Of a DNA stretch of 64,000 nucleotides, positions 2,228-63,177 are shown piece after piece; position 1 is the stretch's first letter; every line of letters begins with the position of its first letter. Both the position numbers and the translations under genes were made by a program. Location: the NCBI GenBank assembly GCA_964480565.1, contig CAYZSU010000002.1, positions 3,367 through 67,366 of the forward strand. Reading direction: 5' to 3'. A model generated the notes under the pieces. The model saw only the letters and a program-made list of their open reading frames with translations. It was not told where the DNA came from and made no database searches. The stretch is from an uncultured Myxococcales bacterium. GTDB taxonomy: Bacteria > UBA10199 > 2-02-FULL-44-16 > JAAZCA01.

Positions 2228-3182
2228 TTTTTTTATCTGATATCAGAGCCTCTGCTGGCGCTAAATCACGATCTCTAAAAAACTTATCATTAACCGATGT
2301 CATGGCATTCACTTCAGCAGCCACATGCCATGCTTGACTTAACTGTCCTGAAACACCCGCACCCAATGACAATAGATGTTGATAATTGATATTTTGAATA
2401 CTTACTTTTTTGCCTGTACGAAAACCCAGATTCACAGCAATACCCAGTTTAGAATGTGGATAGATATCCAGTGCAGCCTTCATACCACCGGTAATACCTG
2501 CATCACCAGTATAGTGAGTATCGCTACCTGTTGGAACAGTAATAAATGGCATTAATGCCACACCAATGGGTGATTTACATGCGCCTAGCAACTTACTCTT
2601 CAACTCAATGCGCAAATCCCCCACATCAATCTGTGTATTAAGCGATGTAGTTGACCTGTCCAAAGGCGATTTAAATGAATTATATAGTACAAATGGCATA
2701 TCAATGCCCAATTGCAACCACGGCATAATGCCCACCGCAGCGGTTAAATCACTGACCAGTAAATGATCGATTACCCCACGGGCACGAAAGTTACTGCTTT
2801 TTACCTGCATGGGTTTAAATGCATAGGAATGATGCATACCCACTAAAAACTGTTTGGCATACAAACTCTCTGATCCGCTAAGCATGGAATATGATGATGG
2901 ACCAATCACAGGTTGATGGAAAATACCATTAAATGTTTGCGAAGCTGCAAATGCATGGCCATGCATTATTGCAAGCATGCCAAAGGTCAAACAAATGAGA
3001 TTGTTGAAAAGCACCCATCTTCGGTGTTTCCCGCTACACCCGTAATCCTTAACAACTCGCATGGTCGCTCGGCCCACGGATTTACGGGCGCCTTGAATCT
3101 GGGCATTTTTGAATAACCCCACAAATTGTCCATTTTTCAATAGTCCCCAAATGAATAGGATTTTTCGATATGAATATGTCAC
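2124..3182 (-). CDS. Beta-barrel-like N-terminal part of the OmpA-family protein. Its signal-peptide region carries an in-frame MITE insertion; the ancestral start is GTG at 3182 with an AAGAGG Shine-Dalgarno sequence. Alternative internal starts at 3062 (ATG inside the MITE) or 2978.
   Basis: Alternating amphipathic beta-strand pattern (KAALDIYPHSKLGIAVNLGFRTG; LSLGAGVSGQLSQAWHVAAEVNAM). Residues 12-61 are a translation of repeat copy A. The reconstructed pre-insertion N-terminus VTYSYRKILFICLTFGMLAIMHGHAFA|AS is a clean signal peptide. Confidence 0.5.
   Translation of the reverse strand: MTYSYRKILFIWGLLKNGQFVGLFKNAQIQGARKSVGRATMRVVKDYGCSGKHRRWVLFNNLICLTFGMLAIMHGHAFAASQTFNGIFHQPVIGPSSYSMLSGSESLYAKQFLVGMHHSYAFKPMQVKSSNFRARGVIDHLLVSDLTAAVGIMPWLQLGIDMPFVLYNSFKSPLDRSTTSLNTQIDVGDLRIELKSKLLGACKSPIGVALMPFITVPTGSDTHYTGDAGITGGMKAALDIYPHSKLGIAVNLGFRTGKKVSIQNINYQHLLSLGAGVSGQLSQAWHVAAEVNAMTSVNDKFFRDRDLAPAEALISDKKIGIIHGGRGRNVFGLWSEGRKSAWKFGIILSIYD
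2999..3147 (+). mobile_element. MITE-like dispersed repeat, copy A (core type 1). Flanked by a direct duplication CAAATGA (2992-2998 and 3148-3154).
   Basis: Shares GATTGTTGAAAAG-CACCCATCTTCGGTGTTTCCCGCTACACCCG...TCTGGGCATTTTTGAA...CAATAGTCCC with copies at 27861, 31693 and 32744. Termini are inverted; flanks are target-site-duplication-like. Confidence 0.8.
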
Positions 3183-7287: not shown

Positions 7288-9420
7288 TTATGGTGTTATC
7301 TGTAATGTCGTTCCCGGCGTTACTTTGGATGGATCATGCAGTTTATTCCATTTTTGTAATTGCGCAATGCTCACATTATGTTTTCTCGCAATATTCCATA
7401 ATGTATCACCTGCTCGCACTTGATAATACATATTTTGCTCTACCTTATCCGCATCTGCGACCAGTTGATCACGCACAGATGCCAGCTCTAAAGCAGATGA
7501 TTGCTTACCACGGATACGAAGGGACTTGCCTGCACGAACGGATTTGGCATGCCGAATATTATTCCAGACCATCAACTGTTTGATACTCACATTATGCCGA
7601 TTGGCAATACCGCCCAAGGTTTCTCCAGGCTTGACTGTATACTGATAGGATTTAGTTGCAGATATTGTTGATGAGGATATATTATTATCCGCCATGCGCA
7701 CTGATGAACGGCTACTGCGTTGACCGCTCCCCTGTCGTCCCACTTGCTCACCATAGATACGAAGGGACTTGCCTGCACGAACAGATTTTGCATTCCGAAT
7801 ATTATTCCATGCCATCAGCTGTTTAATACTCACATTATGTCGGTTGGCAATACCACCCAATGTCTCTCCAGATTTAATTGTATATTTATAGGACTTACTC
7901 GTATTTCTTTTAGAATTAGCCGTATTCTTTGCAATTGATAGTTGTGGACGAATTTTTATTTTCTGCCCTGCCCGAATGCGTTTTGGATTTTTAATATTAT
8001 TCCATGTCATAATATCCGCGCTAGTCACATGGTACTTTTTAGCAAGGCCTGACAATGTATCCCCGGATTTTAATATATGTATTTTAGACTTTGCTTTGGA
8101 TGATGTATTTGTAGCTATACGCGATGATGAATATATTTTTAATTTCTGGCCCAATCGTACTGTATTTCGTTTATTCAATTTATTCCATTTTTGTAAATTC
8201 GTTAATGAGACATGATATTTCCTGGCAATATGCCCAGCAGTCTCCCCCTTTTTTACACGATGATATACGGCTTGCTGACGTTTGGAAGTGCGCGACCGGC
8301 CATGCGATGCAACCGATGATGGCATTTTCCCATTTAGAGGTATAATTAGTTTTTTTCCCAACTTTAAATGACGATAATTTCGAATGTGGTTGGCACGTGC
8401 AATGGTCTTTACTCCTACATTATATTTTCTAGCAATACCTGATAGTGTATCCCCACGTTTGACACGGTGGTACGCCATGCGAATACGCTTGGACTTAGGC
8501 AATTTGGCATATTTTTGATTAAAAATAGCCGCTGTCCCTTTGGGCAAACGCACTTTATAATTACGCACTGGTGGTGTAATTTTACGATATAAATGCGGGT
8601 TTAGAATAAGAATGTTTTTATTTGTACTACCTGTTAAGTCTGCAATCACACTTAAATCAGTCTGAGTACCCACCATACTCACATCATAATCAAAGGGTGC
8701 TGCATAGTTGATATTTGTAAATCCAAATTTTTCAGGCATTTTTGCAATAATTGCTGCCGCTATATACTTTGGCACATAATTACGGGTTTCCGCACGAAGT
8801 GCACGCTTATGCGCTGCCCACGTCCAAAAATCTTTCACACCTGTCATTTTATATGCTTTGTTAATGCGACCAGGCCCTGCATTATATCCCACCATCGCCA
8901 CATACCAATCGCCATGCTTATCATATAAATCACGGAAAAATCTGGCAGCCGCACGTGTAGACTTATACACGTCTCGGCGTTCATCCACCCAATGACCCAC
9001 TTTTAAATCATAAATACGTGCAGTAGATGCAATAAATTGCCAAAAACCAACTGCGCTCGCATGTGAATAGGCCTGTGAATTGAACCCACTTTCAATCATA
9101 GCAATATATACTAAATCCAGAGGTAATCCTTCTTCTTTTAATATGCTGCGCATAATTGATATATATCGACCTGAACGTTCTAAATATCGTTGAAATGATT
9201 TTCGACCTGGACCTTGGAAATACTCTAACCACGCCACCACACGCTCATTAATAGTAATAGGCATATCAAATTTTGGCAAATATTTTAGATTATGTTCTTT
9301 AATATAACGATGTGAATACTTGGATGATCGTACTTTTGGCGTTTTCAAACAGGAAATACTTCCAACCGCGTAAATAACAACTAGAATGATCAAGAGTGCA
9401 TATCGAAAAGAATGTCGCAT
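7288..9420 (-). CDS. mltD: Membrane-bound lytic murein transglycosylase D-like lipoprotein (SLT domain plus five or six LysM repeats)
   Basis: SLT catalytic region ...ESGFN...VGFWQF.... Repeated LysM modules (YxVKxGDTLxxIAxKYxV...WN). Lipobox GSISC. Start at 9420, so that the ftsZ terminator hairpin (9445-9486) lies upstream of the CDS. Confidence 0.8.
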   Translation of the reverse strand: MRHSFRYALLIILVVIYAVGSISCLKTPKVRSSKYSHRYIKEHNLKYLPKFDMPITINERVVAWLEYFQGPGRKSFQRYLERSGRYISIMRSILKEEGLPLDLVYIAMIESGFNSQAYSHASAVGFWQFIASTARIYDLKVGHWVDERRDVYKSTRAAARFFRDLYDKHGDWYVAMVGYNAGPGRINKAYKMTGVKDFWTWAAHKRALRAETRNYVPKYIAAAIIAKMPEKFGFTNINYAAPFDYDVSMVGTQTDLSVIADLTGSTNKNILILNPHLYRKITPPVRNYKVRLPKGTAAIFNQKYAKLPKSKRIRMAYHRVKRGDTLSGIARKYNVGVKTIARANHIRNYRHLKLGKKLIIPLNGKMPSSVASHGRSRTSKRQQAVYHRVKKGETAGHIARKYHVSLTNLQKWNKLNKRNTVRLGQKLKIYSSSRIATNTSSKAKSKIHILKSGDTLSGLAKKYHVTSADIMTWNNIKNPKRIRAGQKIKIRPQLSIAKNTANSKRNTSKSYKYTIKSGETLGGIANRHNVSIKQLMAWNNIRNAKSVRAGKSLRIYGEQVGRQGSGQRSSRSSVRMADNNISSSTISATKSYQYTVKPGETLGGIANRHNVSIKQLMVWNNIRHAKSVRAGKSLRIRGKQSSALELASVRDQLVADADKVEQNMYYQVRAGDTLWNIARKHNVSIAQLQKWNKLHDPSKVTPGTTLQITP

Positions 9421-9435
9421 GACGACCTCATTAGT

Positions 9436-9486
9436 AAAAACTATATCGCACAACAATAATAACTACTATCATTACTGCTGTGCGAT
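9436..9486 (-). terminator. Candidate terminator after ftsZ (end of the dcw operon)
   Basis: Inverted repeat ATCGCACAaCAa...tgCTGTGCGAT (9445-9486), 5 nt after the ftsZ stop. Followed on the minus strand by TTTTTA. Confidence 0.4.
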
Positions 9487-26585: not shown

Positions 26586-27469
26586 ACACCCCTTACCAAC
26601 ACTCGCATCTTTGCACTACGCGATCTAGGATTTTGAGCAATCTCATCATCACCTGCACAAATAATTTTTTTATATGCCAAATGATAGTCTTCATCCTTAG
26701 CCAATCGTTTAAATGTATGCTTTACCAGTCGATCTTCCAATGAATGATAGCTAATCATAATCATTTTACCACTCACTGCTAACAACTTTGGAGCTGTATT
26801 TAGAAGTATATTTATCTGCGCTAATTCCTGATTAACTTCAATACGAATAGCCTGGAATGTACGTGTTGCAGGATGAATCCGACCATAGCGCATCTTCGGT
26901 GGATAGCATGCTGCAATAATTTGAGATAATACCAATGTACTATCAATTGGACGCGCCTTACAGATGGCACGTGCAATACGCCTAGCAAATCGGTCCTGCC
27001 CATAGTCTTTAATGATAATAGCCAGCGCATCCTCTTCCATTTCATTAATCACAATACCTGCATGATATGCATCCGATTGATTCATACGCATATCCAGCGG
27101 TGCATCTTTTTGAAAACTAAATCCACGCTTTGCAGTATCCAATTGAAAGCTAGACACACCAAAATCTGCCAATATCCCTACTATATTTAATTGTCTAAGA
27201 TCAGGTAATGATGACACATCTTTCATATCTGCATGAATGGCATTAAATCGATTGCCAAAACATTTAAGACGTTCAGATGCTGCTATAATTGCATCCATAT
27301 CCCTATCAATCCCAACAATATTAATACCTGGCATTGACTCCAGCAATGCATGACTATGCCCGCCACCACCCAATGTCACATCCAATATACTACCCGCCAT
27401 ATTTATGGATGAAAATTCGTCTAGCACTTCCTTGCACAGTACCGGCACATGATAGGATTCGTCGATCAC
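26582..27469 (-). CDS. rsmH: 16S rRNA (cytosine1402-N4)-methyltransferase RsmH/MraW
   Basis: HVPVLCKEVL N-terminus; SAM-binding DVTLGGGGHS. Confidence 0.9.
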   Translation of the reverse strand: MIDESYHVPVLCKEVLDEFSSINMAGSILDVTLGGGGHSHALLESMPGINIVGIDRDMDAIIAASERLKCFGNRFNAIHADMKDVSSLPDLRQLNIVGILADFGVSSFQLDTAKRGFSFQKDAPLDMRMNQSDAYHAGIVINEMEEDALAIIIKDYGQDRFARRIARAICKARPIDSTLVLSQIIAACYPPKMRYGRIHPATRTFQAIRIEVNQELAQINILLNTAPKLLAVSGKMIMISYHSLEDRLVKHTFKRLAKDEDYHLAYKKIICAGDDEIAQNPRSRSAKMRVLVRGV

Positions 27470-27846
27470 TGCATGACCTCTGGCCTATAATCGCCAGCAA
27501 AACTAATCAATGCCTCTTCTACGGATGTATATAAGTTCTCATTCCATCCCATAGCCTGAAAAATATAGCGAATATAATCACTGACTGCGGCCATCTTTAA
27601 ATCACCGCCATCACATTTAAATGCAATAATTTGATCGACTATCTTACGAACTAACTTGTAGTCAAGATGCGTCAGTCCAGAGAAATTAAGCACTACATTA
27701 TTCTGTTCACACTGAGCCAGAGACATAAATACATTTTCCAGCACATGTATATTATGACTCGACAATTCTCCATTTACGCCAACAATAGATACATCATGAC
27801 ATCTGGTAACTTCAAACATATCTCTCTCCCCAAAGATCCCTCGCAA
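27466..27846 (-). CDS. STAS-domain protein (anti-sigma-factor-antagonist-like), inserted between mraZ and rsmH
   Basis: SpoIIAA-like pattern (VSIVGVNGELSSHNIHVLEN...VVLNFSGLTHLDYKLVRKIVDQI). 4-nt overlap with rsmH. Confidence 0.55.
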   Translation of the reverse strand: MRGIFGERDMFEVTRCHDVSIVGVNGELSSHNIHVLENVFMSLAQCEQNNVVLNFSGLTHLDYKLVRKIVDQIIAFKCDGGDLKMAAVSDYIRYIFQAMGWNENLYTSVEEALISFAGDYRPEVMQ

Positions 27847-27860
27847 TTATTTCAATAGTG

Positions 27861-28009
27861 GGGCTGTTGAAAAATGCCCATCTTCGGTGTTTCCCGCTAC
27901 ACCCGCAATCCTCACGTACTCGCATGTACGCTCCGGTTACGGGTTTGCGGAAGCCTAGAATCTGGGCATTTTTGAACAACCCCTAAAATTGCTATTTCTC
28001 AACAGTCCC
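27861..28009 (+). mobile_element. MITE-like dispersed repeat, copy B (core type 1). Perfect 6-bp direct duplication ATAGTG (27855-27860 and 28010-28015).
   Basis: GGGCTGTTGAAAAATGCCCATCTTCGGTGTTTCCCGCTACACCCGCAATCC...TCTGGGCATTTTTGAACAACCCCTAAAATTGCTATTTCTCAACAGTCCC. Termini are mutual reverse complements. Confidence 0.85.
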
Positions 28010-28058
28010 ATAGTGAAAGCGCCTAAAAAACATCCCTTCCTTAGGCCAGTCTGCCCAC

Positions 28059-28499
28059 TTACAATCCCAAATCAGCCAAGCGACTACCTAAATTTTCTAA
28101 TGTACTTTGCGCATCATTAAATACAAGATCCCAACGATCTTTGGCCCAAATCTCAAATCGTTTTGTCATGCCCACAATAATGACATCACGCGACATTCCA
28201 GCATAATCACGCAATGATGCGGGAATGATAATCCGACCCTGCTTATCAATAGGGCATTCCACTGCAGCGGATATAAATACGCGCTGCAATGCTTTAACTT
28301 CTTCCATGAATTGCGGCAATGCGCTGACTTTTCCTTCCAACACCTGCCATTCACTCACTGGATAAGCCCATAAACATTGATCAAAATTGGTAATAATCAC
28401 ACGCTCATCATAATTGGAGCCCAATGTATCGCGAAAACGCGATGGCACTGATAATCGCCCTTTTGCATCAATTTGATGATTATATCGCCCTCGAAACAT
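28059..28499 (-). CDS. mraZ: Transcriptional regulator MraZ
   Basis: Duplicated MraZ/SpoVT-AbrB-like halves (IDAKGRLSVPSRFR; IDKQGRIIIPASLR). Confidence 0.9.
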   Translation of the reverse strand: MFRGRYNHQIDAKGRLSVPSRFRDTLGSNYDERVIITNFDQCLWAYPVSEWQVLEGKVSALPQFMEEVKALQRVFISAAVECPIDKQGRIIIPASLRDYAGMSRDVIIVGMTKRFEIWAKDRWDLVFNDAQSTLENLGSRLADLGL

Positions 28500-28830: not shown

Positions 28831-29922
28831 TTATGATCGTATCAACTCCTGATAGATTAAATCATGAAGCTGCGGTCGAAATGCACGAATTGCAGTATTG
28901 GTAGAGGTGGGATGAATTCGATTACTGAGTAATATAACATGATACTTATTATCCAAATCAATCCACAGCGAACATCCTGTATACCCCAAATGCCCGATGG
29001 AATTGGCTGAAAAAAATCGACCCGAAGATGAATTCACAGAGGAAGGCCTCATCCAGCCTAGTACATATTGATCATTCTCCGGTTTATTTTCATCCGTATG
29101 CAAAAAATCATAGACTGTTTGTTGGGGCAACCAAGAACAATTTTTATGATAGCTACAGGCCAATGCCGCAGCAAATGCATCCAAATCCAAAGCACATGAA
29201 AACAAACCGGCATGCCCAGCCACTCCACCCAATGCATAGGCATTGGGATCATGCACCTGCGCATGAATGATTCGTTTGCGCCACGGGCAATCCTCTGTAG
29301 GGGCAAATCGACGGTTTTGCGCTAATATATCAGCCTGCTGTTTGGATATTTGCCCAATATTGCGAATGAAAAATGTATGATGCAATCCTAATGGCTGTGC
29401 AATATGATGACTAAAGAGCACATCTAACGGTGCATTCCCCGCTTCTTCTAAAATTCGACCCAATAAAATATACCCAATATCACTATAAATTATTTGATCT
29501 CCTGCCAAAGCAATCGCAGGCTCCTGATAGCAGGCATCCAACACCCATGCACGCCCTTCATCCGTACCCACCAAACTTCGCGGCAATTCTCGATAAAACG
29601 GTTGCCATGCGGCAAGCCCTGATACATGGGATAATAATTGCTGAACAGTCATCTGGCTATGAATTGACAAATCAGCTTTACCCAACCATTGCCCCACTGT
29701 ATCAGACAAACGAAGCAACCCAGAAGAGCATAGTTCCATTGCAACACTCGCAGTACAAACAGCCTTACTCAACGATGCAATATCGAACAATGTCCCATTT
29801 CTGGCATCACCAAAATAAGAATGAAATACAATTTGATCTTCATGCCTAACCAATACTTCAGCTGCAGGAAAGACATTATCCCGAATCGCATGTTCACATA
29901 ATTGTATAATGGCCTGATTCAT
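28831..29922 (-). CDS. Beta-lactamase-family serine hydrolase (class C / PBP4*-like)
   Basis: SxxK active-site motif FDIASLSKAV. Beta-lactamase-family length and composition. Confidence 0.7.
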   Translation of the reverse strand: MNQAIIQLCEHAIRDNVFPAAEVLVRHEDQIVFHSYFGDARNGTLFDIASLSKAVCTASVAMELCSSGLLRLSDTVGQWLGKADLSIHSQMTVQQLLSHVSGLAAWQPFYRELPRSLVGTDEGRAWVLDACYQEPAIALAGDQIIYSDIGYILLGRILEEAGNAPLDVLFSHHIAQPLGLHHTFFIRNIGQISKQQADILAQNRRFAPTEDCPWRKRIIHAQVHDPNAYALGGVAGHAGLFSCALDLDAFAAALACSYHKNCSWLPQQTVYDFLHTDENKPENDQYVLGWMRPSSVNSSSGRFFSANSIGHLGYTGCSLWIDLDNKYHVILLSNRIHPTSTNTAIRAFRPQLHDLIYQELIRS

Positions 29923-30881
29923 ATCGCATCCATAAGATAAAGCGTGCTATCTTGCGCTGTCATTGCAGATAGTGTACATGCTCGGTTTAGTGCAACAGTA
30001 AATGTATTTGCACAATGCCCGAATGGGCAACTCATCACAATTGGACCAGAAAACCCGGACAAACAATCCAGAATCATCTCCTTCATGTCATGGGTATCGT
30101 CCGCTCTATTTTCAAGAGTTCCAAATAAAATTGCTTTAGCGTTTAATAGCTGGCTCGAATTAATTAAATGCATTAGCATACGGTCAAGTGCATAGACATG
30201 CTCATTCACATCTTCAAGCATCACAATTTTTCCAGGTAAATCACTATGATATGCAGTCCCGACACTGGTGCTGAGCATACTAATACAGCCACCTGCTGTA
30301 CGACCCTCACAGTTACCAGATTGAATAATATCTGCCTGTTGCAAGGAAATCGTGTATGATTTTGAGGGTGATAGCAATGCACGTAAAAAAGATCCCTTTG
30401 CATCCATATCTGTACCTTGTGCAAGTTGTGTTAATACAGGACCATAATAAACATGGCATTTAGTGTGTTTGGCAATCATATTAAGCAATGGTGTTAAATC
30501 AGACAATCCAACAATCGTTTTGCTGATATGCGCATATTGCGCCCAATTTATTTGAGTTAATAAACGTTGCACACCATAGCCACCACGCGCAAACAAAATA
30601 ATATCAATGGAATCATCCGTAAGCAGTCGATTGATTTCATTCAAACGACGTTGATCATCACCCGCAAAATAGCGATATTGATCAAATATACTATTATCAT
30701 ATATAACGTCAAAACCATGTGCATGTAATTTTTGAATACCTACTTGAAATAAATCACGAGAAAAATGCCCAGAAAGCGCAGCAATACCCACACGTTTTTT
30801 TTCAGATCTTAATTTATCCCCCAACATGTATTTACTATACCCGCGTCCATCAAAAATCGCTAGTATTATATGACAATACAA
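29919..30881 (-). CDS. ldcA: LD-carboxypeptidase (peptidase S66, muramoyltetrapeptide carboxypeptidase-like). Alternative start ATG at 30827.
   Basis: S66 family blocks (IGIAALSGHF, FARGGYG) and a C-terminal catalytic region. Confidence 0.75.
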   Translation of the reverse strand: MYCHIILAIFDGRGYSKYMLGDKLRSEKKRVGIAALSGHFSRDLFQVGIQKLHAHGFDVIYDNSIFDQYRYFAGDDQRRLNEINRLLTDDSIDIILFARGGYGVQRLLTQINWAQYAHISKTIVGLSDLTPLLNMIAKHTKCHVYYGPVLTQLAQGTDMDAKGSFLRALLSPSKSYTISLQQADIIQSGNCEGRTAGGCISMLSTSVGTAYHSDLPGKIVMLEDVNEHVYALDRMLMHLINSSQLLNAKAILFGTLENRADDTHDMKEMILDCLSGFSGPIVMSCPFGHCANTFTVALNRACTLSAMTAQDSTLYLMDAI

Positions 30882-31155
30882 TTTACATCATGTAATTGTT
30901 AACAATCCAATATTTCTTCCCGTTTAAGAGAAATTTTCTATCTTCTGATAAAATACAGCCATCATCAGCTAACACATGTATACAAAGGAGTTATCAGTGT
31001 TAGTAAAAAAAATAATTTTAGTAATCGAGAATTAAAAAAAAAGAAATATCTTCCAACCTATTGATATCTTTCATATTTAAGTTTGGCATATCATTTGCGA
31101 ATTCCCTTGATCACAATATCTGAAATCATAGTGATTATCAAAAAAAGGAGAAAAA

Positions 31156-31665
31156 ATGACACGTACTTGGCTTATCGCACTCACAGCACTTATCACAACT
31201 TGCATGGTATCACCTCTTGTATATGCATTAAATGACTGCTACCATTCAGGGGAACAATTACTCATACATGATAATAGTACAGGACATGTTCGTTATGAAC
31301 GTACTGAGACAATTTATCAGCAACCTGATAATTTTTTACTCGCCACAATTGAAGATGAACGTATTATTTTCACACCCATTGTTGAAGTTTTCAAAAATGA
31401 GCTTACCAATCGTTTACTTCGCATTGAATTATCCACTGGCCATAGTTTGATGATCACAGAATCCCATCCAGTATGGGTGAATGACACATTTATCACAGCT
31501 GGCACATTAAGCATCGATGATACATTAACCAGTATTACTGGCGAATCCGTAAGCATCATGGATGTCAAGGTGATGAATTATGATGGATTTGTATATAATT
31601 TTGCTATCAATGGTTCAGGCATACAAATCAGCGATGGCATCCGCCTAGGCGGATCAGACATATAA
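31156..31665 (+). CDS. Small secreted protein consisting essentially of a Hint (Hedgehog/intein / bacterial intein-like) domain
   Basis: Strong AGGAG Shine-Dalgarno sequence. Signal peptide MTRTWLIALTALITTCMVSPLVYA. Hint-like blocks: LTGHSLMITESHPVWV, AGTLSIDDTLTSITGESVSI and the terminal VYNF. Confidence 0.45.
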   Translation: MTRTWLIALTALITTCMVSPLVYALNDCYHSGEQLLIHDNSTGHVRYERTETIYQQPDNFLLATIEDERIIFTPIVEVFKNELTNRLLRIELSTGHSLMITESHPVWVNDTFITAGTLSIDDTLTSITGESVSIMDVKVMNYDGFVYNFAINGSGIQISDGIRLGGSDI

Positions 31666-31692
31666 AACCAACTCAACAACTAATTACACTAT

Positions 31693-31843
31693 GGGACTGG
31701 TGAAAAATAGCAATTTGTGGGGTTGTTCAAAAATGTCCAGATTCAAGGCCTCCCGCAAACTCGTAACCGGAGCGTACATGCGAGTACGTGAGGATTGCGA
31801 GTGTAGCGGGAAACACAGAAGATGGGCGTTTTTCAACAACCCC
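31693..31843 (-). mobile_element. MITE-like dispersed repeat, copy C (core type 1, inverted orientation). Direct duplication (C)ACTAT at 31687-31692 and 31843/31844-31848.
   Basis: Reverse complement of copy B along its whole length (GGGACTGGTGAAAAATAGCAATTTGTGGGGTTGTTCAAAAATGTCCAGATTC...GAAGATGGGCGTTTTTCAACAACCC). Confidence 0.8.
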
Positions 31844-31868
31844 ACTATCAATACACTATGATTTCACA

Positions 31869-31899
31869 AAAGCGCCAGCATAATGCTGGCGTTTTTTAT
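31869..31899 (+). terminator. Rho-independent terminator for the Hint-like gene, located beyond the inserted MITE
   Basis: Hairpin CGCCAGCA-taa-TGCTGGCG followed by TTTTTTAT. Confidence 0.6.
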
Positions 31900-31910
31900 A
31901 AGAGAATAAA

Positions 31911-32040
31911 TCCAGATGGCATCCGTCTAATTTGGAATTTTCTGTATGCGCCCTCATTGAAATTTGCTGTTTAGCGAAGTGACAGCGTAATGAGTGTTAA
32001 TGCAATTATTACATTGATCAAGCGCTTATGCATTACAGAA
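31911..32040 (+). repeat. Internal fragment of the long (mosaic) MITE variant; related to the core of the element at 62391-62610
   Basis: Shares ...TGCGCCCTCATTGAAATTTGCTGTTTAGCGAAGTGACAGCGTAATGAGTGTT...GATCAAGCGCTTATGCATTAC with 62450-62555. Confidence 0.6.
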
Positions 32041-32130
32041 TTAAAAAACTGAATCTATACAACTTTCTTCAAAAATCAAATTTCTACTGGACAATCTCAT
32101 AAACTCATTATATTTAGTAAAACTCTATTT

Positions 32131-32217
32131 GGGGAGGTGGCCGAGTGGCTGAAGGCGGCACCCTGCTAAGGTGTTATACGGGAGACCGTATCGAGGGTTC
32201 AAATCCCTCCCTCTCCG
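32131..32217 (+). tRNA. tRNA-Ser (anticodon GCU), long variable arm. CCA not encoded.
   Basis: Folded by hand. Acceptor stem GGGGAGG/CCTCTCC (one G-U pair). D-arm GCCGAGTGGCTGAAGGC. Anticodon loop CTGCTAA. T-arm GAGGGTTCAAATCCCTC. Discriminator G. Confidence 0.9.
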
Positions 32218-32225
32218 CAACAAAA

Positions 32226-32252
32226 AACCCTCACTAATGTGAGGGTTTTTTA
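32226..32252 (+). terminator. Rho-independent terminator after tRNA-Ser
   Basis: AACCCTCAC-taat-GTGAGGGTT followed by TTTTTAT. Confidence 0.7.
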
Positions 32253-32354: not shown

Positions 32355-33565
32355 ATGAATAAAAAGGGACTCCAAAAAATCGGATACGATGAACGAATAG
32401 ACAGTGTAAGCGGTGAATACCTTCAGGACGGGTTTACGATTGCCAGAATAATCGAGGTAAAAATAGCTATACCGTATCAAATGGTCGTCATGAGATGCCG
32501 GCAGAACTCTGCGGTAAATTTCTATTTGATATAGAGAATACAAGCAATTTTCCGACTGTCGGTGACTGGGTAACAATACAGGCCCTTTCTGATAATGCAC
32601 TTGCCCTTATCCACTCTGTCTTGCCGCGCAAGACGCTATTGAAGTGTAAAGAAGCTGGCAGAAAAATAGCATTCCAGCTGATTGCTGCCAATATAGACAT
32701 CGGATTAATCGTACAACCAGCAGATCAGATTAACCTGCTGGATGGGACTGTTGAAAAACGCCCATCTTCGGTGTTGTTCAGCAAATTCAATTCAGTTACA
32801 TACTCGTATGTATGCGCCTTCATTGAATTTGCTGTCCGCCTAGAATCTGGGCATTTTTGAACAGCCCCTAAAATACCTATTTCTCAACAGTCCCTGGATA
32901 GGTATTGCGCGATGCTATAATGAGAGCGATATACAACCTATAGCGGTATTTACGAAAAAAGATCTGATCCCACCTGATGAGATCTCATCCATACAAAATG
33001 ACCTTGCCATGTTACACATGCAATATGTGTTTATCAGCAATGCCGTCAAAGGTGGAGAAACGGATCTATCCAAAAATCTCGTTTCAGGTAAAACATATTG
33101 TTTACTTGGCAAATCCGGAGTCGGCAAGACATCCCTTCTCAATCGATTGCTTCATAGTGATGAGTTCAAAGTAAATAATGTTCGAAAAAAAGATGGAAAA
33201 GGAAAGCATACCACTACAAAACGACAGCTGGTGTGTCTTGATTCCGGCAGCATCTTCATTGATACACCAGGCATGCGAGAACTTGGAAATTTTAAAATAA
33301 ACAAAGGCATCGATGAAACGTTTGAAGAGTTCTCTTTGCTAGCATTATCCTGTCGCTTCAAAAATTGTACCCATAACCACGAAGAGGGATGCGCAGTTCT
33401 TGACGCTATCTCACGGGGAAAATCGAACAAACTAGATATGATAATTTTTTAAAGCTCAAACGAGAGGCAGAATTCTATGACATGTCATATCATGAAAAGC
33501 GCCATAAGGATAAATCCTTTGGAAAAATGATAAAACAGTACAAAAAATTTAAAAATCAGCAATAG
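32355..33565 (+). pseudogene. rsgA: rsgA (ribosome small-subunit-dependent GTPase A) pseudogene, split by MITE copy D and at least three frameshifts
   Basis: RsgA blocks recovered in three different frames: OB domain (...CGKFLFDI...PTVGDWV), IAANIDIGLIV / LDRY / IAVFTKKDL, G domain (GKSGVGKTSLLN, GKGKHTTT, DTPG), zinc finger (CRFKNCTHNHEEGCAV) and tail RYDNFLKLKRE. Confidence 0.75.
32744..32893 (+). mobile_element. MITE-like dispersed repeat, copy D (core type 2), inserted inside rsgA. Direct duplication (C)TGGAT at 32738-32743 and 32894-32899.
   Basis: GGGACTGTTGAAAAACGCCCATCTTCGGTGTTGTTCAG...TCTGGGCATTTTTGAACAGCCCCTAAAATACCTATTTCTCAACAGTCC. Same termini as copies A-C but a different core. 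Confidence 0.8.
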
Positions 33566-33660: not shown

Positions 33661-34662
33661 CTACCTCACATGTACATCCACTATTTGAAATCGACTTGGA
33701 TTTTTTGTCGTATGCGGATCATTATCATAGGTGATCATCAGTCGCAGTGTATCATCATGATCATACGGTAGTACACAAATGCCTTCGGCTTTCATACCAT
33801 AACCAAAACTAGTGATTTCTCGCAATACATGCGGTGTATCTTTTGAAACCAACCATAGTTTATTCTCAAAAAAATTATTTTCATCATCCTCGCTGGCTGT
33901 TGTTACTAAAAAACCTTTTAGCCGAGGCACGTATTCCAAAGAGGATAATTCAAATCGTGTACCTGAGCTGGCTACACCTGCTTCAAAATCCAGTTGTTTT
34001 ACAAATGCAAGTTGATCGCCATTTTTTGCAGACGTTAAATCATCTGACAAATAGATGCGAAATGATTTTTTCAAATCCACAGCCTGCCGCACACCAATGG
34101 CGAGTCTCCCATCCCATATAGCAAGGCCTTCCAACTTCACAAGATCCCCATTTTTATCCGGTGGATATACACCTTTCCTCGTTAAGGCCTGATCCAAGTA
34201 AAACCTACTCACATCCATTATTTTATTTGGAATACCCTTTTTATTAAATGATGTAAGCGCAAAACGGATTAAATAGGAATTCACCTGATAGTATTTTAAT
34301 CCACCCGTATGCGAACTGAGCAGATAATAATAATGTCCATCATAGGCCATGGCTTCCCATTTAATGAATGGATTTTTCTTTATTGATGCAGATAGTTTAA
34401 AATTACCGTTATAAATGCGCGCCACTTCCTTACCCGTACGGACATTCACCACAAACACCCCTTTAGTTCGATCATCCGCAACCAACACATAGTTTCCTTG
34501 CCCAATGGGCGCAACTGCCGATGCCTCCAATGCAGTATCCACTTTATTTTTTGATTTCATGAATGGCCATGTGGGCGATGACAATTCATATGAATCCGCC
34601 CATGCAGTGGTTATTGCGCATATGCATATAATGATATAACCGACAAATGATTGAATTTTCAT
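33661..34662 (-). CDS. Secreted hypothetical protein (possibly beta-propeller-like)
   Basis: Signal peptide MKIQSFVGYIIICICAITTAWA. No confident domain assignment. Confidence 0.4.
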   Translation of the reverse strand: MKIQSFVGYIIICICAITTAWADSYELSSPTWPFMKSKNKVDTALEASAVAPIGQGNYVLVADDRTKGVFVVNVRTGKEVARIYNGNFKLSASIKKNPFIKWEAMAYDGHYYYLLSSHTGGLKYYQVNSYLIRFALTSFNKKGIPNKIMDVSRFYLDQALTRKGVYPPDKNGDLVKLEGLAIWDGRLAIGVRQAVDLKKSFRIYLSDDLTSAKNGDQLAFVKQLDFEAGVASSGTRFELSSLEYVPRLKGFLVTTASEDDENNFFENKLWLVSKDTPHVLREITSFGYGMKAEGICVLPYDHDDTLRLMITYDNDPHTTKNPSRFQIVDVHVR

Positions 34663-34786: not shown

Positions 34787-35476
34787 TTAATCTTTTTTCA
34801 TAATGAATAAATAATTAAATCCGCGCAAATAAAAATTGCCCTTCACCGCCTCATCCAAAAAATTCTTTCGTTTGAGTTTTTTATTATGGCGCACCACAGA
34901 AACAATATCGAGTGCCCGGAAGTATTTTTGTAATATTCCAAACAACTCAAAACCAATAGGTACAAACCCTTTTTTATTTTGATAGGTGTCGGACACATAC
35001 AATGCCATACAGCGCTTAGGCCGCATGATACGGTGAATTTCAGCAATCACCCGATGCATGGATTTAAAATAGTCCACCTCAAATGCAGATAGTTTACCAA
35101 TACATCGCTTATCATCGGAATAATCAATATGCGTGGAATATGGCGGATCGATAAATACAAAATCCGCTTTTTCATCCTCTAAAGGTAGCTTTCTTGCATC
35201 GGATCGAAAAATATCCTTTCGCGTGGGATTTAAGTCATAGCCCAATGCGCGCCGATTTAAGTCCCTAGCCACATCCAATGTCGTCCCGCTGCCACACATG
35301 GGATCCACGATTAAATCTTTTTTTCTTGTATAACGATTTAACAAGTTCCAAATAATATAGGATGGTGTTGCTCCTTCATAGTCTTTACTACCCTGTATTT
35401 CCCCACCATAATGTTGAGAAGGATAATCCCACAAAGTGGTACCATGCATGGGCACATTGTTTCTAGTATTATTCAT
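34787..35476 (-). CDS. Small SAM-dependent nucleic-acid methyltransferase (N6-adenine / N2-guanine amino-methyltransferase family; UPF0020-like)
   Basis: Motif I LIVDPMCGSGTTLDVA and motif IV FVFIDPPYS. No adjacent restriction endonuclease. Confidence 0.55.
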   Translation of the reverse strand: MNNTRNNVPMHGTTLWDYPSQHYGGEIQGSKDYEGATPSYIIWNLLNRYTRKKDLIVDPMCGSGTTLDVARDLNRRALGYDLNPTRKDIFRSDARKLPLEDEKADFVFIDPPYSTHIDYSDDKRCIGKLSAFEVDYFKSMHRVIAEIHRIMRPKRCMALYVSDTYQNKKGFVPIGFELFGILQKYFRALDIVSVVRHNKKLKRKNFLDEAVKGNFYLRGFNYLFIMKKD

Positions 35477-35492: not shown

Positions 35493-37619
35493 TTAATACG
35501 ATTTTTTTCCGTAAATCCGCTGATAATTCCAATAGGCTGTCATGACTTTTTTCACATATAAATTTGTTTCTGCATACGGTATTTCCTCGATCCATTCATC
35601 AATACTTTGTTTTTTATTTGACTGAACCCAGCGTCCAGCTGCTTGCTCGCCTGCATTATAAGAAGCAATCATCGCAATTGGGTGGTCGGGAAACATCGTA
35701 TTCAATGTATGAATATAATGCATGCCCAATGTAATATTGAGCGTTGGGTTCATCAATTGCTTTCGCGATATGGCGCGATTATTCGCATACTGTTTAAATC
35801 GGTTGGCAGTGTAAGGCATGAGCTGCATAAGCCCCACTGCCCCTGCAGACGACACAACCTTTTCTTGGAAAAAAGATTCTGTGCGCATCAACGACCAAAT
35901 GAGTATGGGGTTAATCTGCAATAGTCGACTTAGCGGCATGATCACCAAGTCATAGGCAGGAGGAAATCGACTTGCAACCGAACGATGCGCCTGATAATTC
36001 GTATAGGCATTTTTCACAGATCCTTTATAATATAGACCTGCCACTTTAACGCCAAAATAATAGGCATTATTTTTCTCAGCTAAACTCCGCAGCACATCGG
36101 CATAGTCTTTTTTTCCGGCAATTGTCACATGCGCCAATTCCTTTTGCACCAAATCGGATAGCCCCATAGCATCAAATATAATCGCACGATTCACATGAAT
36201 CGCATAGGTATCATTGGGTGCAAATCGGATTGATGAATTATTTAACTTAATGCGCTTTAACTTCCGAGAAAACAATGTATGCATATTTATAGGTCTGCGC
36301 TTTAAGCGAAGTCTCGCCAACTGAGCATAATATCCATAGGGATATTTTTGAATGAGCGTTTGAAACAATGCCTTGCCTGTTTGTCGCTGTTTTATCCTCG
36401 TTAATGCAACTGCCTTCCAATACATGATGCGATCATTGATATGATATTTTTTAGCACTCCCTTTTAGCAATTGATCGAATATACGCACTGCCTTTGCATA
36501 ATTCTTCGTTTGATAATAACACCATGCCAAATACCAATTGGCCATGGTACGGAGTTTTCCCCGAAGCTTATACTTTGCCAATACATTCGTCCACTTGGCT
36601 ATTGCAAAGCGGTAGGCCCCTTTATCCATATGCAAATAAGCAATTCGGTAAGCAGTTAGACCTGCCAAACGTGACTTTGGATTTAATTTTTTCAACTGTT
36701 TTTTTCGTATTGCAAGCGCTTTTGAGTATTCACTTTTCTTGGCATATAAATTCACCATCAGCGATGGAATTGCATCCAAGTATGAAAATGTTCGCGCATA
36801 TTGCTTTATCTCGTGCAACAATGCCAATGCCTGATCATAATCATGCAACCATCGATAACTCTGCGCCAACAACCATTTCATCTTCACGCGATGGGCATGC
36901 GTGATATTTTTTGATACCAATGGTTTAAGCCGCAACACAATATCATCCCATTGTGAATACTCAGCAAATGATTCGCATAATGTGATTTGACGAGATGTAC
37001 TATCTGCCAGCCAAGCCATCACATCCACCTTAAATCGCTTGCGAATGGCGCTCGTCCATTCGGTTAACTGCATTAGCTCTGCTTCAGAACGACTGGACAG
37101 CATCAATTTCTTTGCCAATGCAATGCTTGCAGATTTCTTTTTAGCCGAAAGATATAGCTGCAATCGTTTGATATCCATATCGCGATGATTTATTTCCGGT
37201 AAATGTGACTTTGCGGACTCATACATATCTTCTGATTGCTGATATTTTTTATGATATGCATAAATCTCAGCCAAACCCTGATACGCATTTGCCTTCCATA
37301 TACTATCCAGGCTGTTTTGCAATATGGCTTGAAAAAGAATTTCCGATTGATTCCATTTTTTCGTATGCAGTGCAATAAGACCTTGATAATATAGCAATGT
37401 ATCATCAATTTGCCATAAATCTGGAAAAGCATCTTTCAACCAATACTCTGCCAAACGATATTCTTTATTTACAATTGCCTGATGCGCTTTTTGAAATTTT
37501 TTCACTGATTGTTTAGACGGAAAACCCATGGACGCACTGCCATAGGCATTAGCAGTCAGAAAAAAAATGATTAGAGAAATCCCTAAAAATAATTGTTTAA
37601 TCATAATGAGTAATTTCAT
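35493..37619 (-). CDS. slt: Soluble lytic murein transglycosylase (Slt70-like)
   Basis: Signal peptide, TPR-like superhelical N-domain, and C-terminal SLT catalytic block ...ESFFQEKVVSSAGAVGLMQLMPYTA...YNAGE. Confidence 0.8.
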   Translation of the reverse strand: MKLLIMIKQLFLGISLIIFFLTANAYGSASMGFPSKQSVKKFQKAHQAIVNKEYRLAEYWLKDAFPDLWQIDDTLLYYQGLIALHTKKWNQSEILFQAILQNSLDSIWKANAYQGLAEIYAYHKKYQQSEDMYESAKSHLPEINHRDMDIKRLQLYLSAKKKSASIALAKKLMLSSRSEAELMQLTEWTSAIRKRFKVDVMAWLADSTSRQITLCESFAEYSQWDDIVLRLKPLVSKNITHAHRVKMKWLLAQSYRWLHDYDQALALLHEIKQYARTFSYLDAIPSLMVNLYAKKSEYSKALAIRKKQLKKLNPKSRLAGLTAYRIAYLHMDKGAYRFAIAKWTNVLAKYKLRGKLRTMANWYLAWCYYQTKNYAKAVRIFDQLLKGSAKKYHINDRIMYWKAVALTRIKQRQTGKALFQTLIQKYPYGYYAQLARLRLKRRPINMHTLFSRKLKRIKLNNSSIRFAPNDTYAIHVNRAIIFDAMGLSDLVQKELAHVTIAGKKDYADVLRSLAEKNNAYYFGVKVAGLYYKGSVKNAYTNYQAHRSVASRFPPAYDLVIMPLSRLLQINPILIWSLMRTESFFQEKVVSSAGAVGLMQLMPYTANRFKQYANNRAISRKQLMNPTLNITLGMHYIHTLNTMFPDHPIAMIASYNAGEQAAGRWVQSNKKQSIDEWIEEIPYAETNLYVKKVMTAYWNYQRIYGKKSY

Positions 37620-54702: not shown

Positions 54703-54726
54703 CAAAATGCCCATCTTCGGTGTTTC
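54703..54726 (+). repeat. Solo fragment of the MITE left terminus
   Basis: CAAAATGCCCATCTTCGGTGTTTC matches the left end of copies A and B. Confidence 0.5.
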
Positions 54727-62312: not shown

Positions 62313-62390
62313 AGATCCTCCTTCCGGGTCTTAAAAATAAGCTCTGGGCCAATCCCAGAACTAAGGAGACTGATAAGTCTTTAATTTAAT

Positions 62391-62610
62391 GGGTTTTTTT
62401 AAAAACGCCCATCATCAGTGTTATTCAGTAAATTCAATTCAGTAGCATATTCTTATGGTTGCGCTCTCATTGAATTTTCTGTTTAGCGATGTGACAACCT
62501 GAGTGTTTGCATTCGCAAATAGCCAAGCTGATCAAGCGCTTATGCATTACTGACAGTGAAAATATAATAGTCGCTGTCTGCTTAAAACCTGGATATTTTT
62601 GAACAGTTCC
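62391..62610 (+). mobile_element. Long mosaic MITE variant (copy F). It has the type-2 left end plus a ~75-bp extra core module, and a truncated/divergent right end that abuts the pth stop codon.
   Basis: GGGTTTTTTTAAAAACGCCCATCATCAGTGTTATTCAG... matches copy D. The middle matches 31911-32040. The end is ...GGATATTTTTGAACAG. Confidence 0.65.
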
Positions 62611-63177
62611 TCAATTTGTATGAAATCGTTGTTGAACATCTGCAAGTGTCATATCGCTTACCAAACATTTAATTGCGCGACTTGCAGTATTAATCAACTC
62701 TTTCAATTGTATATCATCATTACTATCAAAGGCTTGCAATACATAATCCGCGGGATTCATATAATTTGGTGGTCTGCCAATGCCAAACCGAATGCGGTAT
62801 ATGTCCTTACTGCTAAGCATTTGATAAATTGACCGAATGCCATTGTGACCACCATGACCACGATTCGTATCAATTTTTATTTTTCCAAATGAAATATCTA
62901 GATCATCATGAATCACAATAATATCATGGCACTCTATTTTATAATACCCTGCAATACTAGCAACCGCTTCACCAGATAAATTCATAAATGTTTCTGGCTT
63001 AATCAATATGGCAGGCCGATTTTCAATTAGCCCTTTACCGATAAGTGACTTAAATTGCTTATTGCATACATCGATATTCCACTGACCTGCCAAGTAATCG
63101 ATTACATGAAAGCCAATATTATGGCGATGTCTAGAATATCGTCTACCCGGATTACCTAGTCCAACAATTAACTTCAT
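62611..63177 (-). CDS. pth: Peptidyl-tRNA hydrolase
   Basis: MKLIVGLGNPG...HNIGF... catalytic His/Asp blocks. Confidence 0.9.
   Translation of the reverse strand: MKLIVGLGNPGRRYSRHRHNIGFHVIDYLAGQWNIDVCNKQFKSLIGKGLIENRPAILIKPETFMNLSGEAVASIAGYYKIECHDIIVIHDDLDISFGKIKIDTNRGHGGHNGIRSIYQMLSSKDIYRIRFGIGRPPNYMNPADYVLQAFDSNDDIQLKELINTASRAIKCLVSDMTLADVQQRFHTN

Follow-up and report, generated by a model that had tools for sequence, protein, structure and literature searches.

A 64,000-nucleotide stretch of DNA from an uncultured Myxococcales bacterium (assembly GCA_964480565.1, contig CAYZSU010000002.1; referred to here as the window), representing a chromosomal segment of ~39% GC, contains a gene for a protein of 169 amino acids (aa) that lies between ldcA and a tRNA-Ser gene (31156-31665 on the plus strand, taken from the listing of open reading frames, ORFs). 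Based on sequence comparison and structure prediction, this protein probably represents a bare Hint autoprocessing domain exported via the Sec pathway, namely a minimal, cargo-less and partly eroded member of a subgroup of C-terminal Hint proteins, in which the N-terminal chemistry appears to be intact. Coordinates of the features discussed are summarized in Table 1.

The start of the Hint gene was assigned to an ATG preceded by a Shine-Dalgarno sequence. This start, which is also used in the ENA gene call, is favoured over the 153-aa JGI call because of the AGGAG site and an in-frame stop codon seven codons upstream of the ATG. The GC content of the gene amounts to 38.4% compared with 38.7% for the window, and given its ribosome-binding site and its terminator the gene looks expressible. 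The encoded N-terminus has a charged beginning, MTR, and then a 20-residue hydrophobic segment (W5-A24; Kyte-Doolittle windows of up to 2.2), which, as judged by hydropathy and inspection, probably functions as a Sec-type signal peptide or signal anchor. The export signal that an earlier, sequence-only reading of the locus had recognised was found again as the hydrophobic segment ending in V-Y-A, and the -3/-1 rule would place signal cleavage after A24. Residues 5-15 form a low-confidence helix in the AlphaFold model, and equivalent hydrophobic N-terminal segments are present in three homologues described below (P0004, P0009 and P0014). Interpretation of I-T-T-C16 as a lipoprotein signal was rejected, since Thr at position -1 is unlike the lipobox consensus. 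Between the predicted signal and Cys28 only L25-N26-D27 are found. The statement that no cargo flanks the Hint domain also held, with three residues (LND) before it and three after it.

The product is confidently predicted to adopt the horseshoe-like all-beta Hint fold, and the earlier assignment to this fold was borne out by Pfam, by profile searches against PDB and by AlphaFold combined with Foldseek. The match to Pfam PT-HINT (PF07591; E = 6e-6) is marginal, reaching 27.0 bits and thus staying below the gathering cut-off of 27.7; further matches were obtained for Pfam Intein_splicing (E = 3e-3) and NCBIfam TIGR01445 intein_Nterm (E = 3.5e-4). A phmmer search of PDB with the single sequence retrieved five mini-inteins at E = 2.5e-4 to 1e-3. 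Moreover, a profile of the alignment of ten family members (A1) retrieved 27 PDB sequences, all of them inteins or bacterial intein-like (BIL) domains, with a best E-value of 1e-10. The AlphaFold model calculated from A1 reached a pLDDT (predicted local distance difference test) of 88.4 and a pTM (predicted template modelling score) of 0.78, with 123 residues at or above 90. Comparison of this model with PDB by means of Foldseek yielded 62 matches at E <= 1e-3 with E-values down to 5.6e-9. The best 50 of these 62 are all mini-inteins, BIL domains or Hedgehog domains with TM (template modelling) values of 0.6-0.8, and include the Clostridium thermocellum BIL (2lwy), Tetrahymena BIL2 (6y75) and the Hedgehog autoprocessing domain (1at0, 6tyy).

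Other Hint types were considered for the protein. No match to Pfam Hint (PF01079) was obtained and, apart from the three final residues, nothing follows the fold, which sets the protein apart from Hedgehog Hog domains. Likewise, no match to PF13403 (Hint_2), assumed here to be equivalent to B-type BILs, was found at E <= 10, and this family was weakly matched by only one of ten family members. The protein also differs from inteins, having no exteins and no His-Asn and ending in G-G-S-D-I. Searches of PHROG and PADLOC gave no match for it.

Regarding catalytic motifs, the alignment to the subgroup profile described below begins at profile position 1 with Cys28, the putative block A nucleophile (Cys1). 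Block B was aligned to TPSH and block F to VYDL of the Pho RadA intein; in A1, N148 of block F is invariant and Y147 nearly so. The sequence-only reading had named HPVWV and a terminal VYNF as Hint-like blocks. Both are real, corresponding to blocks B and F, but VYNF is not terminal: the 20 residues following it include the last strand of the fold and a degenerate block G.

In order to place the protein within the Hint superfamily, 1.84 billion cluster representatives were searched with HMMER (E <= 1e-3), resulting in 49 hits. The only close match is this protein itself, from the organism of the window, and all metagenome contigs carrying it are 100% identical to the window on the DNA level. 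P0055 and P0057 were initially candidates for proteins of a related strain and were discarded, since they stem from other gene calls made on DNA that shows 100% identity to the window. A word-indexed protein search with the single sequence recovered the same organism's protein only, and with the A1 profile three proteins only. Furthermore, scans of GTDB genomes with the Hint protein and with LdcA returned no relatives, the organism being without a close species representative.

The other 47 HMMER proteins fall mostly into two classes. Members of the His-Asn class carry internal, often tandem Hint domains in proteins of up to ~3,400 aa and are of the A-type BIL/pretoxin kind. The G-D class comprises 13 proteins ending in G-x-x-[VI/T]-G-D-x-x-x-Q, with Hint as the last domain in all 13. 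Its N-terminal part consists of ~350 aa with a lipoprotein-type signal in P0034, P0035, P0029 and P0043, or of 60-100 cysteine-rich residues in P0013, P0037, P0039 and P0020, and can be missing altogether. Class profiles were built without the window protein and after trimming of the last eight residues, which hold the defining motif. The window domain scored 91 bits against the G-D class, end-to-end from Cys1, versus 65 bits against the His-Asn class, while leave-one-out scores of true G-D members range from 51 to 122 bits. In a neighbour-joining tree, the window protein is located inside the G-D clade with 88% bootstrap support and outside the best-supported inner clade. These comparisons assign it to the C-terminal-Hint G-D subgroup and not to the pretoxin or A-type BIL Hints. 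The idea of a stray copy of the BIL/pretoxin Hint usually found within large toxins is contradicted by both profile scores and the clade support, as well as by the missing His-Asn end.

The G-D subgroup is probably the one that Dori-Bachash et al. (2009) named 'C-type BIL', reported from predatory bacteria in association with a PPS-1 domain. Of this, only the presence of PPS-1 in C-type BILs is confirmed by a secondary source (PMC9185962). FtsZ of the organism shares no more than 74-75% identity with any known sequence, its named relatives being metagenome-assembled genomes (MAGs) labelled Deltaproteobacteria or Pseudomonadota bacterium, which is compatible with kinship with predatory groups without demonstrating it. 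The subgroup itself was noted by Bürglin in 2008 as 'yet another subgroup', in which some members possess a signal peptide and, upstream of the domain, two conserved cysteines, and according to that author Dassa and Pietrokovski had seen it earlier (PMC2362128). C-termini given in Additional file 17 of that study are FAGGILVGDNNLQ for Photorhabdus plu1731, FAGGFLVGDKSMQ for Stigmatella STIAU_1829, AGGFLVGDMTMQ for Myxococcus MXAN_6253 and FANGIAIGDLGYQ for Reinekea MED297_11140 (PMC2362128).

The C-terminus of the window copy deviates from this pattern. Where the subgroup has G-x-x-[VI]-G-D-x-x-x-Q, it reads G-I-R-L-G-G-S-D-I followed by the stop codon. Block G accordingly ends in G-I-R-L-G-G, compared with G-I-V-V-G-D in the subgroup and G-x-L-V-H-N (G-I-L-V-H-N) in A-type BILs, and the terminal Asp of the subgroup, aligned without gaps to the terminal Asn of His-Asn Hints, is replaced by Gly. 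In inteins, the terminal Asn cleaves the C-terminal junction through cyclisation, and activity has been reported for inteins with a terminal Asp or Gln. Due to the exchange of the terminal Asp for Gly, any C-terminal reaction should be abolished in the window copy. Sixteen columns are invariant among the other small members (alignment A3) and were mapped onto the window protein via A1. It keeps 11 of them exactly, including Cys1, the Thr and His of block B and the Asn of block F; two show conservative changes (Phe to Tyr, Val to Leu) and three are lost (a loop Gly, the terminal Asp and the Gln four residues further on). The lost residues show that the machinery no longer has its C-terminal half.

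The stop codon occupies the column of the invariant Gln, and a change from CAA (Gln) to TAA corresponds to one transition. The in-frame residues beyond it resemble the family tails QNQLLS in P0034 and QNRLNE in P0035. When Q-N-Q-L-N-N was appended to the protein, it scored better on the family C-terminus profile than 989 of 1000 random tails (11/1000 match; p ~0.01). The family-like tail behind the stop is suggestive of the loss of six residues outside the fold through a nonsense mutation of fairly recent date. A metagenome scan with LdcA, together with a scan for a stop-spanning DNA pattern of the CAA allele, recovered nothing.

The sequence-only reading had regarded a stand-alone copy as unusual. 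The architecture is genuine, but it recurs: P0004 (189 aa), P0009 (183 aa, from the NCBI MAG GCA_043820105.1 and annotated 'Hint domain-containing protein') and P0014 (190 aa) also consist of a signal, 4-6 residues, C-[FY]-H, the Hint domain and a short tail. As deduced from these gene models, the cargo-less architecture is found in four divergent lineages. All three genes are preceded by an AGGAG/GGAGG site of their own and, 6-9 codons upstream, by an in-frame stop, which shows that they are not truncated gene calls. Identities to the window protein amount to 22-26% over full-length A1 and to 24-31% over the stretches matched by HMMER. Unlike the window protein, all three keep G-D-x-x-x-Q and a short tail. 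The upstream cysteine region (PPS-1 domain) is absent in the window protein and likewise in P0004, P0009 and P0014. The C28, T101 and H104 columns are invariant across all ten members of A1, including all four cargo-less proteins, which suggests that the N-terminal reaction still matters in this family. Genomic contexts of the three homologues share nothing with that of the window gene, neither a tRNA nor a MITE (miniature inverted-repeat transposable element, see below) being located beside them, and a conserved partner gene was not found beside the cargo-less homologues; P0009, for instance, is flanked by hemB and a gene for a sigma-54 regulator. Downstream of P0014, a gene of the class-A beta-lactamase-like type is found (PF13354; 943-2166 of L004), and the window Hint gene is one gene away from the beta-lactamase-fold gene (PF00144) and adjacent to ldcA. 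These two cases involve different families and appear to be a weak coincidence.

Based on these results, the following course of events is proposed. After export via Sec, an N-to-S acyl shift may occur at Asp27-Cys28; with Cys28, Thr101 and His104 intact, this first step of the established Hint chemistry is the most likely one. The resulting thioester would then be resolved by hydrolysis or by another nucleophile, and the upstream leader would be shed. The leader would consist of LND if signal peptidase cuts after Ala24, or otherwise of the whole hydrophobic anchor, both options being left open by the 20-residue length of the hydrophobic stretch. This would leave a free Hint domain, periplasmic or secreted, that starts with a cysteine, and from its sequence no C-terminal reaction would be possible in the window copy.

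Several points weigh against this proposal. A hydrophobic stretch of 20 residues is long for a cleavable signal, and export as well as the cleavage site were judged by inspection only. Outside the organism itself, ~15 billion proteins include no orthologue with more than 31% identity, and selection on the window copy is therefore not measurable. Furthermore, the other three cargo-less proteins form a clade with cargo-bearing members that has 100% support and excludes the window protein, so that their conservation says little about the window copy. A Hint domain with nothing to release has no obvious purpose, and the lost terminal Asp and invariant Gln, the neighbouring rsgA pseudogene and MITE activity fit a decaying gene. 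Accordingly, the gene could be a relic, either of a larger Hedgehog-like secreted protein or of a complete minimal one, that still encodes the fold, has lost its function and is on its way to becoming a pseudogene. Besides the exchange of Asp for Gly at the equivalent of the terminal Asn/Asp, the stop at the invariant Gln with N-Q-L-N-N readable in frame behind it, the frame change and MITE insertion in rsgA downstream, the MITE copies and fragments around the gene and the orphan distribution of the protein are in line with such decay. However, the reading frame is otherwise uninterrupted over its 169 codons, a strong ribosome-binding site precedes it and a terminator of its own follows, 13 of the 16 invariant columns are kept exactly or conservatively, and the AlphaFold model is confident across the whole domain. 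Moreover, the MITE is inserted 23 nt past the stop and not within the ORF, and only six residues outside the fold were lost. We consider a relic less likely than not, yet to be taken seriously as an alternative.

A re-purposed fold has to be weighed as well, that is, an exported, stable and non-cleaving envelope module in which Cys28 is kept for another role, e.g., a disulfide with Cys16 or lipidation. The missing cargo and the loss of the C-terminal catalytic position would agree with this, as would eukaryotic Hint folds without splicing and the nematode 'Hog only' (hog-1) and 'Short-hog' proteins, which tolerate loss of the N-terminal cargo domain and provide a precedent for it (PMC2362128). 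Such a role is nevertheless quite improbable: the invariance of Cys1 and T-x-x-H in the ten aligned members fits continued selection for the N-terminal reaction, and a conserved partner gene beside the cargo-less homologues is missing.

It is hardly credible, and largely refuted within the window, that the gene is a BIL/pretoxin Hint module stranded from a polymorphic-toxin locus or from an element integrated at tRNA-Ser: PT-HINT is the best Pfam match, the two best HMMER matches (P0002 and P0003) are large proteins with tandem or repeated His-Asn Hints, the gene is an orphan, the tRNA is found 466 bp downstream, behind MITE debris, and an orphan DNA methylase is encoded further on, yet the PT-HINT score remains below its cut-off, the profile test and the tree point to C-terminal G-D Hints, behind which a toxin domain never occurs, and the His-Asn end is absent. 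The locus itself gave the same picture. Among the neighbouring genes tested (~26.6-51.3 kb, including rsmH and a STAS-domain ORF), no toxin, immunity or Rhs gene and no integrase, transposase or phage protein was detected, and no defence matches were obtained beyond the orphan methylase, for which no restriction enzyme was detected among its neighbours. The Hint gene shows no GC deviation. The duplication of the tRNA-Ser 3' end that the sequence-only reading had suggested looking for did not appear either, since the 23-nt and 17-nt ends each gave a single match in the 64 kb at <= 3 mismatches. Housekeeping genes occupy both flanks. The Hint gene, placed between ldcA and tRNA-Ser, is read as an ordinary part of the chromosome, and its interpretation as a remnant of an integrated element is not supported within the window. 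Lateral gain or rapid divergence of this orphan gene is possible.

The flanking region includes the dcw cluster on the minus strand (9.5-28.5 kb), comprising mraZ, rsmH, ftsI, mur genes and ftsA to ftsZ. The Hint ORF is transcribed divergently from ldcA, from which it is separated by an AT-rich spacer of 274 bp. Downstream of the tRNA, the N-terminal part of rsgA is distributed over two reading frames (ORFs 32355-32534 and 32495-32860). The MITE at 32742-32894 lies within this pseudogene, of which only the C-terminal piece (33009-33452) still matches Pfam RsgA_GTPase. In the leader of the dcw cluster, a MITE (27855-28015) lies between mraZ (28059-28499) and the STAS-domain ORF (27466-27846), which directly precedes rsmH; a STAS gene seems unusual at this position. 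Tandem repeats of 243 nt at 7288-9456 (minus strand) represent six LysM repeats in an MltD-like lytic transglycosylase of the SLT-LysM type and are ordinary.

The region 3' of the Hint gene has been described as a repeat junkyard by the sequence-only reading; it is one MITE family scattered over the window, plus fragments. The family has terminal inverted repeats GGGACTGTTGAAAAA (GGGACTG(G/T)TGAAAAA) and occurs in a short form of ~150 bp and in variants with a different or longer internal segment. A target duplication of 5 bp is clear at four of the five copies and approximate at the fifth (ACTAT for 31693-31843 and 27855-28015, CAAAT for 3001-3128, TGGAT for 32742-32894 and TTAAT/TCAAT for 62389-62614). 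Copy C, which is 92% identical to the copy at 27855-28015, was correctly located by the sequence-only reading in the 3' untranslated region between the stop codon (31663-31665) and the terminator hairpin. It begins 23 nt (31666-31688) past the stop and is flanked by ACTAT at 31688-31692 and 31844-31848; the 3' untranslated region would thus have taken up the element without damage to the ORF, which is untouched. Together, MITE and terminator fold into a long hairpin (-95.8 kcal/mol, z = -8.9). The terminator scan flagged the hairpin on the minus strand, and the T-run on the plus strand was read from the sequence.

Repeat fragment G and the tRNA-Ser(GCT) downstream of the gene and its repeats were likewise found as previously noted. 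The fragment corresponds to an internal stretch of the longer element (62389-62614), with 31947-31984 resembling 62460-62496 at 89% and 32015-32036 being identical (100%) to 62529-62550. The tRNA gene has a terminator hairpin of its own at ~32225-32252. A near-duplicate of 15 nt, GATGGCATCCG(C/T)CTA, occurs at 31633-31647 within the Hint ORF and at 31915-31929 just after the terminator, encoding DGIRL at both places. It was dismissed as a trace of gene duplication, as 10 of 500 shuffles reach its score and the resemblance is probably due to chance. On the minus strand, 31861-32001 shows a sub-threshold Rfam match to the enterobacterial small RNA STnc430 (38.7 bits, gathering cut-off 47; E = 0.002), which overlaps the terminator hairpin and the repeat fragment and is likely spurious.

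Table 1. Features of the Hint locus and of its surroundings in the 64-kb window.
Feature	Position	Strand	Basis or remark
Shine-Dalgarno sequence AGGAG	31146-31150	+	5 nt before ATG; read from sequence
Hint ORF: predicted export signal, LND, Hint domain (residues 28-166), three residues	31156-31665	+	
Predicted signal peptide or signal anchor, residues 1-24 (MTR and W5-A24, ending VYA)	31156-31227	+	hydropathy profile
Codon of Cys28, putative block A nucleophile (Cys1), preceded by Asp27	31237-31239	+	invariant column in A1
Block B, Thr101-Glu-Ser-His104 (T-x-x-H) in ITESHPVWV	31456-31467	+	T101 and H104 invariant in A1
Block F, Val-Tyr-Asn-Phe, residues 146-149	31591-31602	+	A1
Degenerate block G, G161-I-R-L-G165-G166	31636-31653	+	A1, motif survey, Bürglin Additional file 17
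Stop TAA at the invariant Gln column of the subgroup, then in-frame N-Q-L-N-N and second TAA	31663-31683	+	ungapped A1 register
MITE copy C, 151 bp (31693-31843), with target duplications	31688-31848	-	five-copy alignment
Intrinsic terminator of the Hint gene, GCGCCAGC-ATAA-GCTGGCGC and T-run	31873-31897 (hairpin 31873-31891)	+	reads on both strands
Repeat fragment G, decayed, of the longer MITE variant	31943-32036	+	blastn-short
tRNA-Ser(GCT)	32131-32218	+	ARAGORN; Rfam tRNA, 58 bits
MITE family copies	3001-3128, 27855-28015, 31693-31843, 32742-32894, 62389-62614; fragment 54704-54726		
Beta-lactamase-fold gene (PF00144)	28831-29922		
ldcA, LD-carboxypeptidase	29919-30881		
rsgA-like pseudogene (frame change, MITE inside)	32355-33452	+	
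Secreted-type protein, 333 aa, signal-like N-terminus	33661-34662	-	no Pfam, PHROG or PADLOC match
Orphan type II N6/N4 DNA methyltransferase	34787-35476	-	2.6 kb beyond the tRNA
Lytic transglycosylase	35493-37619	-	

For annotation purposes, the Hint gene represents a chromosomal orphan that Pfam misses by 0.7 bit. Moreover, the MITE family breaks short-read assemblies of the organism at every copy; its short-read and metagenome contigs (L001, L005 and L006) all end inside MITE copies.

Hint domains are understood as processors of something else, i.e., an extein, a toxin or a signalling domain. The family considered here consists of putatively exported proteins that keep the N-terminal catalytic residues and have nothing to process, which raises the question whether the released Hint domain or its thioester has a use of its own. 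Cargo-less secreted Hints could constitute a functional class in their own right, using a single-turnover thioester for self-release or acyl transfer, an idea to which we give a small chance. If it were true, self-release from an uncleaved anchor would amount to a self-timed, protease-independent shedding from the membrane into the periplasm. In the case of acyl transfer, the short upstream peptide would be handed to an envelope or small-molecule nucleophile, a bacterial counterpart, reduced to a minimal 'signal', of cholesterol transfer by Hedgehog. The window copy is a poor test case because of its eroded C-terminal motif, whereas P0004, P0009 and P0014 form a small family suited to standard intein assays.

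Compared with known systems, the protein preferentially read here as an exported, bare Hint domain is most similar to the C-terminal Hint proteins of Bürglin 2008 (plu1731, MXAN_6253, STIAU_1829, MED297_11140 and proteins of Serratia and Yersinia), which are secreted and carry Hint as their last domain. Block A Cys, block B T-x-x-H and block F V-Y-N-[FL] are shared. In place of His-Asn, that subgroup has the C-terminal strand [AG]-x-G-[IVF]-x-[VI]-G-D-x-x-x-Q, and its members possess an upstream region with two conserved cysteines and a tail of 10-20 residues after the Gln. The window protein has neither; it features three residues before Cys1 and Gly in place of Asp, and ends one residue before the Gln.

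A-type BIL/PT-HINT domains and mini-inteins share with the window protein the predicted fold and the N-terminal catalytic blocks, and A-type BILs also have the V-Y-N-F block. However, these domains are internal, often tandem, and end in His-Asn followed by a toxin or an extein, none of which applies to the window protein. Moreover, inteins depend on a +1 nucleophile and on a host protein. Hedgehog proteins are eukaryotic and their Hog part includes a sterol/adduct recognition region, whereas the window protein is bacterial and without such a region; their layout of signal peptide, (cargo) and a C-terminal Hint domain cleaving at its own Cys1 is nevertheless similar. The C-terminal-Hint subgroup as such is already present in the literature; the new part of these findings, to our knowledge, is the cargo-less secreted Hint architecture, of which no earlier bacterial description is known.

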